In this document: positions 131 through 13,110 of the stretch, piece by piece
How positions within the stretch are numbered: position 1 is the stretch's first letter
How the letters are laid out: every line of letters starts with the position of its first letter
Virus record (IMG/VR): IMGVR_UViG_2681813315_000020
Strand: one strand, 5' to 3'
DNA length: 14,422 nt
Source: a virus
Taxonomy: Duplodnaviria; Heunggongvirae; Uroviricota; Caudoviricetes
Program-made: the position numbers and the translations under genes
Notes under the pieces: model-generated
Told to the model about the DNA's origin: nothing
Databases searched by the model: none
What the model saw: only the letters and a program-made list of their open reading frames with translations

Positions 131-612
131 AAATATACAGGCGGGTCATCTTTCCAGGGGAAAGCACGCCAATTCATGAGGGGCGTTAATGTCGATATGG
201 GGATCCCCATAACGGGGCTACCTGGCTTTTTTTCCGGTTAAATGTCAATCAGGCTGGTGGGTTTTACATACCCTTGATCACCGTAATGATGATTCAGATC
301 TGCACCTTTCCACCAATGGTGGAAAAGCCCACAGCAGGCCGCCCAGCCTCCCCCAATGGGGGATTGTGGAAGAATCAACGGGTTAGGCCTTAATCATCTG
401 CGTAATCATAAGTAATCATAATGTTCATTCATCCAGCGCAATTTTGCGTTATCGGGAATATCAAACAGTTACCGCGCCGACTTCCTCAAATTGAGGTTTC
501 CGAAAATATCAGCGGGTTAGCGATTAAGCTGACCATTAATTAAACTGCGAAAATGTCGTAGTTGTGAGGGGTGTAGCCAACCCATTTTTGGACCGTCGGG
601 AATATCAACCAG

Positions 613-906
613 TTACCGCCGCAACCGCTCCGGCTTCTTCCAGTGGTAAGTAATTTTTTCTTTCTCCTGGTACATCTCCACGCGGCGACGATATGACAAC
701 AACTCCAGAACTCTGGTGCGTATATTGCGTATATCCACGCCGTTAAGCTCGATACCGTCACGGCGCATCACCTCAGCCACCACACGCGCGTAATTTTCGG
801 CTATCACGCTGTCCGGCTGCGTGGCCTCCTGTTTGCCTGCTTCCTGGCTGATTCCGGTAACGCGGCGGATTATTTTTAGTAGTTCGGTTTCGCTCATTCT
901 CGTCAT
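613..906 (-). CDS. Hypothetical 97-aa protein, translationally coupled to terL (ATGA stop/start overlap)
   Basis: ORF MTRMSETELLKIIRRV...; its ATG (906-904) overlaps the terL TGA (905-903). No family recognised by eye. Confidence 0.5.
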   Translation of the reverse strand: MTRMSETELLKIIRRVTGISQEAGKQEATQPDSVIAENYARVVAEVMRRDGIELNGVDIRNIRTRVLELLSYRRRVEMYQEKEKITYHWKKPERLRR

Positions 907-2564
907 ACCCCATCAAACGCCGCAAGCCGCTCTTTGTGGCTGTCGCTCATATCGAATGCAAAATCCTCGTGCTCTGCCTGGAATGTGCCAAACGCCATCA
1001 GCGCCGCAACGCTCGGGTCTATCTTGTTGGATGATTTTTTCTTGTTCGGCTTGATATTGGCGTTCGCGTCACTCTGCATCACAACATTACTCATTGACCA
1101 GGCCAGCACCGGATCGCCACGATGCACAATCACCTTCCGGTTAACAAAAACTTCGAACGATTTCGCCGCCGGACTGAAACGAAGGTATGTTTGCGGGAAC
1201 GGCTCCACCTCAAATCCTGCCCCCTGTAGCTGCGTCCTCAGGTGCGTGGCGTTCCATGTATCGAAGCCCACCAGCCTGATATTGAAATTCTCTGCATCCG
1301 CCATGATGTCATCACGGATACGGTCATAATCAATGCAGTCACCCGGTGTTGTGCGTATCCAGCCCGCCTTTACCCACTGGCGATAGATGGCGCGGTTTTT
1401 ATTGGCGGGGTTCTGTAGCTGAAATTCCGGCAGATAGTGACGGGAAACCAGCATAATCTTTTTACCGACCGGAAAGGCATAGCACACGCTGGAAATATCG
1501 CTGGTTGATGATAAGTCCAGCCCCGCGTAGCACTCCTGACCGTATAAATCCGCCTCCGCGAACGTTCCGGCGCACTCCGCCCATGCACCGTTACCCATCC
1601 ACGGCGTAGCCCCCTGACACCAGATATTGAATCGCTTGGTGAGCATTTCCACCTACTGCGACGGAATACCCCGCGCTTTCTGGATGGTTGAGGCCAGTTT
1701 TTCACGATCGACGGAAACATCGATATTGGGATTCGCCTTTATCCACATCGCCGGATCGTCAACCTCGCTTTCATCATCCAGCTCGTAAATCAGCACGAAC
1801 ATGGATTCGTTCACCTCTTCACCATCCAGTATCTGGCAGCAATAGTCATAGTGTTGTTTACAGGCTGAAACAACGTTGCTCCCCGATGTGGTGATGGCAA
1901 ATAACAGCCCCTCCGGACGCGCCCCCATTCCCAGTTCAAGCGCGGAATAAACCCCGTTGTCAGGGTGCAGGTGATATTCATCCACAATGGCAAGACTCGG
2001 GTTTGTACCTTCAATGGTTGCCGCTTTTGCTGCCAGTGGCTTTAACAGGCTGTTGGTTTTCGGGTGTATCACCTTGTGTGCCTGAATATTTACCCGCTTT
2101 CGTAACGGTCGGGATAAAAGGCACATCTGACGCGCATCATCAAACACGATCCGCGCCTGATCACGACTCACGGCGGCGGTGTAAATATCCTGCTGCCCGT
2201 TTTCCATAACCAGAAACCAGTTAGCCAGGATAGCGGCGACCGTGGATTTGGCATTTTTTCGCGGCACTTCAATGAATGCGCTGGTGTATTTGCGCCGTCC
2301 GGTGGCCTTAACCTTAAAGCCCAGGATGCACGCAAAGGCGAACTGCTGCCACGGCTCCAGCTCAATGGGGCTACCGCGCATTGCGCCTTTTACGTGCGGA
2401 CACACCCTGGAAAAGGCAATAAACCGCTCCACGACCTCCGGATCGAACGTGTAAAGGGGGTTTTCAAGGTCAGAAAAATACCGTTTAACGGCCTGTTTCA
2501 GTCGTTTACAGGCCGTAATTTTGCCGTTTTTTACGCCTTCTGCGTACTCATGCCAGGCGGTCAA
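903..2564 (-). pseudogene. terL: Terminase large subunit (HK97-like TerL) interrupted by an in-frame TAG at 1653-1655; N-terminal ATPase fragment 1656-2564, C-terminal nuclease fragment 903-1652
   Basis: ORFs 1653..2564 and 903..1652 are contiguous and in the same frame (...KARGIPSQ-TAG-VEMLTKRFNIW...). The N-terminal part carries a P-loop-like motif (VPRKNAKST) and TerL-like N-terminus; the C-terminal part resembles the terminase nuclease domain. Combined about 553 aa, typical TerL size. Apparent TTG start at 2564 preceded by AGAGGA; overlaps the terS 3' end. Confidence 0.75.
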
Positions 2565-7978: not shown

Positions 7979-8404
7979 TTAAAACGGTATGTTATCCCCG
8001 TACGGGTCATCGTGCTGGCTTGTCTGTTGTTTTGCCCTGTTCAGTGCGTCAGTGGCCTGGCCCTGTTGACCTTTTTTGCCGCCCGGTCGCGCCGTTCGCG
8101 CACTGATTACGCTGTCTGCAATAACCTGCCAGCCCCGCTGCGTTTCCCCGTTCTGGCCTGTCCACTGGCTCACCTGCATGTTACCCGCCACGCTCACCAG
8201 TTCGCCTTTGTGGTGTTTTGCCAGTGCGTCGGCCTGTCTGCCAAACGCCAGGACAGATAACCACATCGTCGCCGTTCCGTCATCTGCCTGGCTGCATGGC
8301 AGGGGAACCGCCATACTCGCCATCGCCATTTGTGTCCCCTTGCTGGTGGTCTTTAACTGCGGGTCAGCCACCAGCCGCCCGTAAGCCGCTATCTGTGCTG
8401 TCAT
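7979..8404 (-). CDS. ssb: Single-stranded DNA-binding protein
   Basis: 141 aa; OB-fold-like N-terminal region (AAYGRLVADPQLKTTSKG...WLSVLAFGRQADALAKHHKGELVSVAGNMQVSQWTGQNGE), Gly/Gln-rich linker and acidic C-terminal tail ending DDPYGDNIPF, cf. the canonical SSB DDDIPF tail. Confidence 0.8.
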   Translation of the reverse strand: MTAQIAAYGRLVADPQLKTTSKGTQMAMASMAVPLPCSQADDGTATMWLSVLAFGRQADALAKHHKGELVSVAGNMQVSQWTGQNGETQRGWQVIADSVISARTARPGGKKGQQGQATDALNRAKQQTSQHDDPYGDNIPF

Positions 8405-8646
8405 GCTGTCTGCTCTCCGGTTTTAACGTTGATGGTTGTCACCTGTTCCGCTTCGGCAATCTCCCGTTCTGTCAGTGTGGCAAAGTTTGCCGCTGCCGTG
8501 GTCATGAATGCGCTTACCAGTTCGGGATGTGCTTTTGCGTACCCTTCTCCCGCGTTGCGGTCGATGATTTTTATCGCCACCCTCAGCCAGTGTTCTGTCA
8601 AATCAAGGGCGTGAGATTGTGTTTTTTTTGCGTGCTGCGTTGTCAC
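8401..8646 (-). CDS. Hypothetical 81-aa protein between the origin and ssb
   Basis: ORF overlapping the ssb start (ATGA-type coupling). No family recognised. Confidence 0.45.
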   Translation of the reverse strand: MTTQHAKKTQSHALDLTEHWLRVAIKIIDRNAGEGYAKAHPELVSAFMTTAAANFATLTEREIAEAEQVTTINVKTGEQTA

Positions 8647-8691
8647 AGGCTTTACCTCACAGCAATAAAATAAAATTTTTGCATTTTAACC

Positions 8692-8920
8692 CTTCACCTG
8701 TTCACCTTTTGAGATTTTCCCTTTTTATTCATAATGTTAAGGGGTGAACAGTTTCACAAAAACTATTCACCAACTGTTCACCACTGTTCACCCTTAAAGC
8801 TCAATAAATAATCAAAAAGGTGAACAGTGAATAGTTTGGTGAACAGTTCACAAATAACTGTTCACCCTATAATGTACTGATATAAAAGATATTTATAACA
8901 GGGTGAACAGTGGTGAACAG
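8692..8920. repeat. Iteron array (about 12 copies of GGTGAACAG / CTGTTCACC in both orientations) with adjacent AT-rich tract 8663-8690; candidate replication origin
   Basis: Read directly: cttcaccTGTTCACC, GGGTGAACAG, tattcaccaaCTGTTCACCaCTGTTCACCc, aGGTGAACAGtgaatag...GGTGAACAGttcac...CTGTTCACCc, GGGTGAACAGtGGTGAACAG. Lies immediately 3' of the primase/helicase gene, the usual place for satellite and plasmid origins. Confidence 0.75.
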
Positions 8921-8933
8921 TTATTCCATAAGT

Positions 8934-10748
8934 TTAATTTTTGCTGTCGTCATTTGTGACCGATGCACATGATGGCATCCAGTCTTCTGAATCCTCTGTC
9001 AGTGTCACATTTGAACGCAAACCGTGCTTCGTTTTCCGTTTTATATACTCCCTGCCATATTCCGCCATTGCCCCCGGCATATCTTTACCGAAGCGCGTCA
9101 GTGTTACAGGTTTACCGAATCCGTGTGCCCTCATATATGCCAGATAGGCGTGATAAAGATACCTGCGCGGACTGAACGGAATAATTTCGGCATTACCCAC
9201 TAACAGACCATCACACATTACCGACGACATGAGATAGCCACAGAAGTCCACCAGCGAATCGCCCTCGCGTTTTATCACCAGAGCTTCTTCTGATTTCTGC
9301 TGCTCATACAGCAGGCGTTTAGCTTCGTCCTGGTCAGAAAAACGAGTAAGCAGATGGCGAATCACAACCGCCAGCTCTCCTTCTATTTTTTCTGCCAGCA
9401 TGGGGTCGCGCTCGTTCTCCGGTACAACCTCCGAAAAATTGAATATCACCCGACGACGTGAGATCCCCCCGCTGCGGTCACTGAATGACATGGCGTTATT
9501 GTTCACCGCCAGCACGACCGCCTGAATGCGTGTTGAGTAGGGGGCTTTATGCTTCGGGTCGATTGCCACCTTGTCACCGCCTGTAATAGCCTTAATTCCT
9601 GCGCCATCACCAGCGTAGCGGGTCATATCCGGCATGATAATCAGCGAAAAGCCAACCACTAACGCGCGTTCCCTTGCATCTTCCAGCGCCTTCATGCTTG
9701 CCGATACTGTGTTGGCCTTACCCGCCAGCATGGTGCAAATCTCCGCCATCACGCTTTTACCACTTCCCCCTGGACCTGTTACCTCAATGAATAACTGCCA
9801 GTCGTACCGGTTCGCCAGCACCATGAATAATGCAGCCAGCACGCGATCCGTCTTGCGGTCATTCTCTGCCACCGAGCAGCGTAACCACTTCCAGAAATTC
9901 GGCGCATGTGTTGCCAGCGTTTCCCCCTCTGCTGGTGGGCTGAAAGGTAATTCACTGGCAATTAACAACCAGTCGTTTTTGTTATGCTCCCGAAAATTAC
10001 CTGTTCTGGTATCAAATACCCCGTTACTGAATCCAATCAGGTTACGGGCTGTATTCCCCATTACAGGCAAACTTAACTTCATGGTATCGACCGCCGATTT
10101 AATGGCGTTCTGCGAATAGCTGATCTCCGCATCAATGAAAATCTGCGCCATAGCACGCTGTAACTCTTTATCCTGAATCGGCTCCCATACAACGCCGTTG
10201 TAATGGTGAACAGTGTCAGAGTCGGCATGAATCGCCAGTTCACCGCCATAATGTGCCAGGAGAACTTCGCCGCGCTGGCTTGCTCCCATCTGGTTAAGCG
10301 CCAGTGGTGCGGCGCTGTCTTCTGTTTTTTTCTTAACAGGAAGCTGAATCACCAGACCATCAGAAAGATTCTGGCGCTCACGGGCCAGATATTCGCGCCA
10401 GTTCTGCACCTCCTGGCCGTGCATACCCTCAGGATAAAAATTTGCATCCTGTACGCCTGCCGCCGCCAGCTTCTGACCAATCGCCTTTATCATTACTGGC
10501 GCAAGATATCCGGCCCTGAATATGCGCACGGATTTTCTGCCTTCCGGCACAATTTGCAGCTTATCCAGTTCGGATAACTGCTGCTCCCCAAGCCACACAG
10601 GAGGCTCATTATCTCCGGCCATACGCGCGTCATGTTCCTGCCATTGTTTTGCGTGTGACCAGGCATCACTACCCGCAAAAATAATGACTTCTGTTTCTTT
10701 GTGTTTTATGCCGCGTGACTGCTGTTTTACGTTCGGTGCCAGTTTCAT
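8934..10748 (-). CDS. Replication initiator: primase/helicase-type protein with D5_N-like region and P-loop NTPase domain
   Basis: 604 aa; Walker A FIEVTGPGGSGKSVMAE; upstream region resembles the D5 N-terminal-like domain found with phage/plasmid primase C-terminal NTPases. Stop codon abuts the iteron array. Confidence 0.8.
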   Translation of the reverse strand: MKLAPNVKQQSRGIKHKETEVIIFAGSDAWSHAKQWQEHDARMAGDNEPPVWLGEQQLSELDKLQIVPEGRKSVRIFRAGYLAPVMIKAIGQKLAAAGVQDANFYPEGMHGQEVQNWREYLARERQNLSDGLVIQLPVKKKTEDSAAPLALNQMGASQRGEVLLAHYGGELAIHADSDTVHHYNGVVWEPIQDKELQRAMAQIFIDAEISYSQNAIKSAVDTMKLSLPVMGNTARNLIGFSNGVFDTRTGNFREHNKNDWLLIASELPFSPPAEGETLATHAPNFWKWLRCSVAENDRKTDRVLAALFMVLANRYDWQLFIEVTGPGGSGKSVMAEICTMLAGKANTVSASMKALEDARERALVVGFSLIIMPDMTRYAGDGAGIKAITGGDKVAIDPKHKAPYSTRIQAVVLAVNNNAMSFSDRSGGISRRRVIFNFSEVVPENERDPMLAEKIEGELAVVIRHLLTRFSDQDEAKRLLYEQQKSEEALVIKREGDSLVDFCGYLMSSVMCDGLLVGNAEIIPFSPRRYLYHAYLAYMRAHGFGKPVTLTRFGKDMPGAMAEYGREYIKRKTKHGLRSNVTLTEDSEDWMPSCASVTNDDSKN

Positions 10749-11774: not shown

Positions 11775-11859
11775 CGCACCATTCGGTTTTAACCTATCAA
11801 TAAGTGAATCGCACCTCAAGCCTTTCTCTGAAATTTTTTTGTGTATACTGAATCGCACC
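11771..11859. promoter_or_regulatory. Divergent promoter/operator region with three ATCGCACC direct repeats
   Basis: gcATCGCACC (11771-11780), gaATCGCACC (11806-11815), gaATCGCACC (11850-11859). A good -10-like TATACT at 11844-11849 lies just before the third copy, upstream of the plus-strand RHH gene (SD AGAGAGGA, ATG 11880). Confidence 0.4.
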
Positions 11860-11879
11860 AACTTAGAGAGGATTCAGTA

Positions 11880-12059
11880 ATGGCAACAGGTTCAACAAAT
11901 AATAAGTCGCAACAGTTAAATGCCAGATTCCCGCATGATGTTGTTGCAGACTTAGAAAAAAATTTAGATGAAGGTGAAAGCAAGGCGCAATTTATAGTTA
12001 CTGCCGTTAAAGGTGAGATCAAACGCCGCCAGCGCCGCAAGGCCAAAGAGCAGGAGTAA
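11880..12059 (+). CDS. Small ribbon-helix-helix (Arc/MetJ-like) DNA-binding protein, candidate regulator
   Basis: 59 aa from ATG 11880: MATGSTNNKSQQLNARFPHDVVADLEKNLDEGESKAQFIVTAVKGEIKRRQRRKAKEQE; pattern of a short beta-strand (LNARFP) followed by two helices and a basic tail resembles the Arc repressor (FNLRWPREVLDLVRKVAEENGRSVNSEIYQRV). Confidence 0.5.
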   Translation: MATGSTNNKSQQLNARFPHDVVADLEKNLDEGESKAQFIVTAVKGEIKRRQRRKAKEQE

Positions 12060-12101
12060 CCATCACCAGCGCCGTGGTGTAAGGTATTACGGCGCATTGC
12101 T

Positions 12102-12290
12102 ATGCAGGACAACACAATGACCGATAAAGAATTGACCAAAACATTATCACCGACACGGAAAAGACGACGCAGAAAGATAGAGCATGAATCAGAAAGATTC
12201 GCGCCATGTGCTTTTGCCCTTGAGCAATTCCTTAAAGAGTACAGGGAAAAGCGCTCATTGCAGGTATGGCAACGAACTGAACCAGACTGA
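12102..12290 (+). CDS. Hypothetical small basic protein (start may be ATG 12117)
   Basis: ORF MQDNTMTDKELTKTLSPTRKRRRRKIEHESERF...; AGGA lies 9 nt before the second ATG; followed by an intrinsic terminator at 12357-12388. Confidence 0.35.
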   Translation: MQDNTMTDKELTKTLSPTRKRRRRKIEHESERFAPCAFALEQFLKEYREKRSLQVWQRTEPD

Positions 12291-12356
12291 TTGCATTGCC
12301 CACCAGCCGCAAATGTGGCATTGTTGGTGATGCTTTTGTTTTCCCTTGTTCTCACT

Positions 12357-12388
12357 GGCGACCCTTTTGCGGTCGCCTTTGTTTTGCC
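12357..12388 (+). terminator. Rho-independent terminator
   Basis: GGCGACC-cttttgc-GGTCGCC followed by TTTGTTTTG. Confidence 0.7.
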
Positions 12389-12481
12389 TGTTATCCGGCA
12401 ATTGTGGCGCTTCGCCACACGGTTGATATAATTCCCCTGCACTGATCCATTTTTTTCGCAGCAGGTTAATTGTTCAGAAAG

Positions 12482-12510
12482 GCGGTTCCTTATCGGGGCC
12501 GCTTTTTTTA
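12482..12510 (+). terminator. Second candidate rho-independent terminator
   Basis: GCGGTTCC-ttatc-GGGGCCGC (two G-U wobbles) followed by TTTTTTTA. Confidence 0.45.
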
Positions 12511-12622
12511 TGCCTGAAAATACCCGATAACATGGCTTTTTAGTTTCACCAGGACGAACGAAGCCCCGCCCCTGTTCGGGCGTATATCCAGTATTCATGG
12601 TTAGATCTCTGTGTTAGTGGAT

Positions 12623-12854: not shown

Positions 12855-13110
12855 TTCTCAAAGAGTCATTTGGTGTCTTATTGTGTCGTATTGTTCCCGC
12901 TAGAGTGATGAATGGCAAATATTGGTGACGGTCGTTTTACAGATATGGGGTAATTAGAATAAAAATACTTTTAATTCATTGTGATGTAGTAGCGTAAAAT
13001 TTTGCTTTTACGCCTTTTTTACATATTTTTAAGAGTGATTCGCCAGTGTATAAAAAAACAGTGTACATATAAAAATCAAATGGTTATGAATGAGTTTGAT
13101 TTTTAATCCG

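Follow-up and report, generated by a model that had tools for sequence, protein, structure and literature searches.

The repeat array behind the helicase gene in the 14,422-nt stretch of DNA analysed here (the window) is, with a probability that we put at about 85%, the vegetative replication origin of a capsid-forming PICI (cf-PICI) integrated in the E. coli chromosome, an assignment that draws on sequence comparison. It is a known kind of origin, the copy in the window being a PICI/cf-PICI origin with a P4-type iteron allele. In Gram-negative PICIs the origin is the region 3' of rep, with an AT-rich region between two iteron sets (PMC6092414); the array in the window lies 3' of pri-rep, has 6+6 units around an AT-rich spacer and adjoins the gene for an initiator that combines a helicase with a winged helix. 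The satellite-type origin proposed in an earlier note on this DNA is supported by the position and layout that the array shares with the corresponding region of EcCICFT073, by its P4 type 1 unit and by the 1KA8-like domain of the neighbouring protein.

The window is a nearly complete, ~14.8-kb cf-PICI satellite of E. coli. All of its genes lie on the minus strand, in the order tyrosine integrase, AlpA regulator, DUF4222 protein, 604-aa initiator, repeats, 81-aa protein, SSB and ProQ/FinO, followed by major capsid, prohead protease, portal, head-tail connector, HNH nuclease, TerS and TerL. Int, alpA and the unidirectional operon correspond to PICI organisation, while the capsid, portal, connector and terminase genes are those of cf-PICIs, and the gene set matches the cf-PICI core components listed in PMC10085698. 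A 98.7% identical copy is present in E. coli NCCP 13717 as a 14.8-kb island inserted in yifB, and no tail or lysis genes were found in that element. In the window terL (903-2564, minus strand) contains an in-frame TAG at codon 304 (1653-1655), where the intact NCCP 13717 homologue (L080, 7052-8713) has Trp; this may reflect a pseudogene copy or a sequencing error, and the island may therefore no longer complete its life cycle. The IHF consensus WATCAANNNNTTR has four exact matches on the plus strand (373-385, 459-471, 603-615 and 13074-13086) against 0.55 expected, a number reached by 0 of 200 shuffles. Three of them lie at the terminase-distal island end and one between int and alpA, and they may be part of att or cos architecture. 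Between alpA and the replication genes lies a 260-aa ORF (11816-12598, minus strand) for which Pfam, NCBIfam, PHROGs and PADLOC gave no hit, possibly an accessory gene; close relatives of the island have different genes there. None of the neighbouring proteins without annotation matched a defence system in PADLOC.

The repeats occupy the 287-bp gap between the initiator gene and the gene for the 81-aa protein (Table 1). With up to one mismatch allowed, GGTGAACAG is matched 16 times in the window as against 2.87 +/- 1.67 expected (0 of 200 shuffles reach 16), and 10 of these matches fall in 8698-8920, nine being exact and one reading GGTGAATAG. Two degenerate units (AGTGAATAG at 8826-8834 and, on the gene strand, GGTGAAGGG at 8690-8698) stand at iteron positions where relatives have better copies, which brings the total to 12. 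The full iteron consensus is the 10-mer ACTGTTCACC, and tandem units are spaced 10-11 bp apart, or about one helical turn. GC content is 0.28-0.38 over 8600-8949 (62-72% A+T) versus 0.51-0.64 in the flanks, the spacers between units being 75-82% A+T, and the first unit (8912-8920) begins 14 nt past the TAA stop (8934-8936) of the 604-aa ORF. The earlier note had described about 12 copies of a 9-bp unit in mixed orientation, next to an AT-rich tract and directly past the stop codon of the helicase gene, and each of these points is borne out (nine exact copies, one with a single mismatch and two degenerate); its span of 8663-8925 is adequate, with the iterons proper in 8690-8920. Outside the array, exact 8-mers occur in the window only at 9500 and 10205, both single sites inside pri-rep. 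These two TGTTCACC sites were rejected as a second cluster, being absent from relatives ~75% identical, and no second iteron cluster was found in the window or in the complete element. A literature search on the bare TGTTCACC string returned primer sequences only.

Table 1. Features of the putative origin and its surroundings, in window coordinates. On the gene (minus) strand F denotes CTGTTCACC and R its complement.
Feature	Position	Strand	Details
Whole iteron array (probable origin core)	8690..8920	.	12 units of (A)CTGTTCACC
Gene-proximal arm	8819..8920	-	six iterons, F F R F F F on gene strand
Distal arm	8690..8792	-	six iterons, R R R F R R on gene strand
Iteron units, gene-proximal	8912-8920, 8902-8910, 8858-8866, 8838-8846, 8826-8834, 8819-8827		8826-8834 degenerate
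Iteron units, distal	8784-8792, 8774-8782, 8763-8771, 8743-8751, 8698-8706, 8690-8698		8763-8771 with 1 mismatch; 8690-8698 degenerate
Central spacer	8793..8818	.	26 bp, 81% A+T, on dyad axis (~8805)
Flanking tract, array to next gene	8660..8689	.	81% A+T
Pri-Rep-like initiator, 604 aa	8934..10748	-	Pfam; PHROG 864 'DNA primase'
Initiator domains (Pfam)	aa 161-290, 324-432, 495-590		D5_N; SF3 helicase DUF5906; Pox_D5 winged-helix DNA-binding
Origin-binding winged-helix domain (predicted)	8973..9263	-	codons 496-592; PDB 1KA8, E=3.3e-24
N-terminal Toprim-like domain	10344..10748	-	codons 1-135; ~97% identical to that part of EcCICFT073 Pri-Rep
81-aa protein, function unassigned	8401..8646	-	PHROG 1231; directly downstream of the putative origin
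SSB, replication module	7979..8404	-	Pfam SSB, E=1e-15; same position in EcCICFT073
Swapped cassette (helicase, DNA-binding domain, origin)	8588..10341	-	flanks nearly identical to EcCICFT073
DNA identity to EcCICFT073, Pri-Rep codons 1-135	10742-10342		93-100%
DNA identity to EcCICFT073, helicase, winged helix, origin	10341-8588		41-65%
DNA identity to EcCICFT073, 81-aa gene	8587-8388		91-92%

The two arms of six units each enclose an AT-rich spacer of their own, of 35 bp in the gene-proximal arm (8867-8901, 80% A+T) and of 36 bp in the distal arm (8707-8742, 75% A+T). When the arms are read outside-in, a mirror-image alignment yields 73 identities in 107 positions and a score of 34, as against a score of -12 in direct orientation. 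Because the arms differ by 1-3-bp indels, an ungapped palindrome test on the array is not significant (as high an identity arises in 268 of 2000 shuffles); the dyad symmetry is one of unit positions and appears only in the gapped, unit-level comparison.

The layout and the units are both retained in related elements. EcCICFT073 has the gene order of the window (DUF4222, pri-rep, an iteron-bearing gap of 289 bp, a gene for 85 aa and SSB). The gap carries CTGTCTACC units, and its 12-unit layout agrees with that of the window in its offsets; in both origins AT-rich DNA lies between two sets of iterons. On the gene strand, with the first unit as zero, the offsets are F0 F10 R53 F74 (F85) F93 / R127 R137 R148 F169 R213 R221 in the window and F0 F9 R57 F77 F88 F97 / R130 R141 (F161) R209 R218 in EcCICFT073. 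A rep-ori fragment of EcCICFT073 maintained a temperature-sensitive plasmid, a rep mutant failed to do so and an ori mutant was also assayed (PMC6092414). The origin function predicted for the window's array is carried over from this homologue, whose winged-helix domain is only 34% identical at the protein level and whose iteron core differs (TGTCTACC vs TGTTCACC in the window). The element in the window further differs in having capsid, portal and terminase genes of its own, as a cf-PICI, which EcCICFT073 is without.

A comparison of iterons across related elements, proposed in the earlier note, was run on eight origins that share the window's iteron, from Escherichia, Klebsiella, Citrobacter, Raoultella, Kluyvera and Pluralibacter (six genera), with initiators 74-78% identical to that of the window. 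Invariant columns make up 60 of 72 in the iterons versus 51 of 153 in the spacers (Fisher p=1.4e-12). Nine origins with the TGTTCACC unit have the 6+6 layout in full or almost in full, and it is also found with TGTCTACC iterons in EcCICFT073, in L014 and largely in L013, and with TCTCTACC iterons in a Symbiopectobacterium locus (L054), while its first half accompanies TGTGCACC iterons in Proteus (L046). The spacing and orientation of the units, which had been called idiosyncratic, thus represent a family design rather than a peculiarity of this element. The layout is common and not universal: TGTCTACC units are arranged differently in one E. ruysiae locus (L009), the layout is modified in Serratia loci, and with the simple k-mer method used no iterons could be called clearly for Pasteurella (Pmp7), Haemophilus, Erwinia and several Xenorhabdus loci. 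In the distal AT-rich spacer a motif unrelated to the iterons, TAAC-N5-TGAAT on the gene strand (window 8727-8742), is kept in all eight aligned origins (aligned columns of the window, L002, L006-L008 and L010-L012), and it could be a host-factor binding site.

Of 5426 complete E. coli genomes, 594 contain the 361-bp region around the repeats, taken as the replication module, as do two records of the plasmid collection. A pri-rep-type gene adjoins this region in all seven matching E. coli records whose annotation was consulted (six loci in genomes and a circular record of 10.8 kb), and the same origin region also occurs in a satellite of different gene content between clpS and cspD. The circular record (L081; NZ_CP148328.1, 1-10790), deposited as an E. 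coli plasmid of 10.8 kb, is a PICI with int, alpA, an icd-like gene, DUF4222 and pri-rep, and carries the window's pri-rep and origin at 95.6% identity; it suggests an episomal form of such islands. The 81-aa protein, which shares 88% identity with its positional counterpart in EcCICFT073, is a conserved neighbour of PICI origins.

The initiator is 55% identical overall to the Pri-Rep of EcCICFT073. Over residues 137-599 it shares 49% identity with P4 alpha (residues 313-776 of the latter), residues 496-592 match 1KA8, the solved winged-helix domain by which P4 alpha binds its origin, and the helicase core matches the SaPI PriRep structure 7OLA (E=2.8e-10). Residues 1-135, which have no Pfam match, share an invariant TEVIIFAGSDAW motif with their relatives, but no invariant DxD is present in the alignment of this Toprim-like domain, and the zinc-ribbon/Toprim primase region of P4 is missing from the protein. 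For the 'primase/helicase' of the earlier note, the helicase stands on the SF3 core, whereas 'primase' is, in view of these three absences, an annotation label; with no invariant DxD in the N-terminal domain, self-priming is doubtful. Database fragments show the same 135-aa domain fused to RepA/AAA_25 helicases, or beside SSB or PerC, and it looks like a portable PICI-specific module.

Among initiators with winged helices 67-84% identical to that of the window, the iteron is TGTTCACC, TGTCTACC or TGTCC(G/A)C. These allele groups are separated by 10 of 19 positions in residues 564-582 versus 0 of 18 in residues 546-563, and the discriminating residues are concentrated at 569-578 (IKRKTKHGLR in the window's protein), which makes this segment a candidate determinant of iteron specificity. 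As the AlphaFold model of the C-terminal domain is unusable (pLDDT 35.9), we infer from 1KA8 homology and typical winged-helix topology that the segment would lie in the 'wing'. On the DNA side the iteron alleles (TGT-TC-ACC, TGT-CT-ACC, TGT-CC-(A/G)C, TGT-GC-ACC and TCT-CT-ACC; past the pri-rep homologues of L018, L016, L017, L054, L046) differ mainly in two central bases, the outer bases being fixed. Of the proposal that unit spacing and orientation define replicon specificity, the part that assigns specificity to the repeats holds, while spacing as a code does not: specificity is tracked by the central bases and about ten residues of the protein. In Serratia phage Scapp, whose initiator is a more distant relative (38% identity), unrelated AAAGTGCA-type repeats occupy the same position past the gene.

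Along the alignment with EcCICFT073, DNA identity falls into three blocks (Table 1), and the working part of the initiator and the origin have thus been exchanged as one cassette. Such an exchange agrees with PMC6092414, in which 'allelic variants' of Pri-Rep are noted, and with PMC10085698, in which primase-replicase genes are reported to be paraphyletic between PICI and cf-PICI. The helicase/DNA-binding part of the initiator and its iterons would be inherited together as an exchangeable cassette.

The mechanism that we propose follows the picture for P4 alpha. Induction by a helper phage would lead to transcription of the operon from alpA through pri-rep, and Pri-Rep would then bind the ACTGTTCACC iterons through its C-terminal winged helix. 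The SF3 helicase would assemble on each arm, most simply as one hexamer per six-iteron arm; the match between six sites and a hexamer is suggestive only. Pri-Rep would next melt AT-rich DNA at the centre, the proposed site being the central spacer, and would start bidirectional theta replication of the excised circle, assisted by the element's own SSB encoded just downstream. The scheme also follows the published picture of the SaPI Rep proteins, which are self-loading helicases (PMC9371898).

The most serious competitor draws on P4 itself, where the cluster behind the alpha gene (46-345 bp past the stop) is crr, a cis-required element and not ori, and where the 120-bp crr repeats each have the order R F F - spacer - R R, similar to that in the inner part of the window's array. 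The array would then bind the initiator and enhance or license replication that initiates elsewhere. P4, however, needs both the ori and the crr cluster whereas the element has only one, which makes a crr-like role improbable; the P4 type 2 repeats (CACTTAAAG, up to one mismatch) give five scattered matches in the window, with no clustering and no more than chance frequency, and the layout is that of the tested EcCICFT073 origin region rather than of a duplicated crr. A different role is suggested by the place of the array in the gap upstream of a conserved gene with no terminator-like site between pri-rep and that gene, so that transcription probably crosses the array: Pri-Rep might use it mainly as an operator and control transcription into the 81-aa gene, SSB, ProQ and capsid genes, as in some plasmids. 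We regard this as very improbable. The promoter/terminator scan of the gene strand found nothing, with no sigma-70-like promoter in 8350-9100, and twelve sites in dyad symmetry around an AT-rich centre are an origin design, common to the tested SaPI and PICI origins, that an operator role does not explain. A regulatory side-effect could coexist with origin function.

It is scarcely credible that the array consists of chance or decayed repeats, that it is a piece of some unrelated repetitive element or that it serves packaging (cos/pac). Its inverted repeats do give weak Rfam hairpin matches, but all of these are far below the gathering thresholds, and an RNA gene is excluded; the repeat count was reached in none of the 200 shuffles, the iterons are kept while the spacers diverge across six genera, and the linkage to pri-rep is consistent in the copies examined, with the terminase genes 6 kb away. 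An unrelated repetitive element, which the earlier note had named as the finding that would overturn its reading, is effectively excluded by these statistics together with the conservation and the layout.

A vegetative origin at this position would locate the start of copying for a widespread satellite and be useful for annotation, for satellite-based vectors and for predicting coexistence. Its comparative value lies in a fixed 6+6 layout reused with at least four iteron sequences, and in a specificity determinant narrowed to the central iteron bases and a short protein segment, one allele sharing the P4 recognition code. Since the 9-10-bp iteron is shared and the predicted origin-binding domains are homologous, the P4 and PICI families may cross-talk in one cell. 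We hold as tentative, and on balance doubtful, the wider proposal that P4 and PICIs with this iteron do cross-talk and that specificity is re-programmed by the ~10 residues at 569-578 and moved as a cassette. If it is true, P4 alpha might trigger replication from the PICI origin or titrate it, and Pri-Rep might occupy P4 ori/crr, with cross-activation or incompatibility as the outcome. P4-like satellites, PICIs and cf-PICIs are reported to under-co-occur in E. coli (PMC10085698), to which such cross-talk could contribute. The comparative findings lead to simple predictions on specificity switching and satellite interference that can be tested; none of them overturns current understanding.

Among known replicons, the iteron plasmids of the pSC101, R6K, RK2, F and P1 type likewise have initiator-binding repeats beside AT-rich DNA, with the iteron sequence setting specificity, but these are 17-22-bp direct repeats recognised by a non-helicase Rep initiator, with DnaA boxes and the host DnaB helicase. 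In the window the units are of 9-10 bp and in mixed orientation, and the initiator is itself an SF3 helicase. No DnaA box (TTATCCACA, up to one mismatch) was found between 7306 and 14422, a result in keeping with DnaA-independent initiation of the P4 kind and one that separates the array from classical iteron plasmids; the IHF consensus is likewise absent from the array.

P4 shares the repeat itself with the window. The GenBank record of P4 (X51522) annotates TGTTCACC as 'ori type 1 repeat', with six copies in ori and ten in crr, and this core is identical in the window. In both, the core is extended to CTGTTCACC (in P4, in the ori copies), tandem units follow each other at 10-11 bp and an iteron cluster lies right behind the initiator gene. 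The window thus has the type 1 iteron with an alpha-type C-terminal domain predicted to bind it, and it does not have the bipartite ori and crr, the N-terminal primase region or the type 2 repeats of a P4-like replicon. The two clusters of P4, ori and the duplicated 120-bp crr (the latter directly past the alpha gene), are separated by 4.5 kb, where this element has a single cluster, and P4 has a terminator between alpha and crr where none separates pri-rep from the array. Alpha, of 777 aa, begins with a primase region of ~310 aa, in place of which the window's protein has an unrelated 135-aa domain, and the P4 morphogenesis genes sid, delta and psu are absent from the element.

The SaPI origins, in which an AT-rich region is flanked by two iteron sets (PMC9371898), differ in having iterons of 5-6 bp and of other sequence and Gram-positive hosts, and similarity in sequence is confined to the helicase core. 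Their organisation is nevertheless that of the window, the origin lying right behind rep with 6-12 short iterons and an AT-rich centre between opposed iterons, and the initiator being a helicase with a C-terminal winged helix (PMC9371898).
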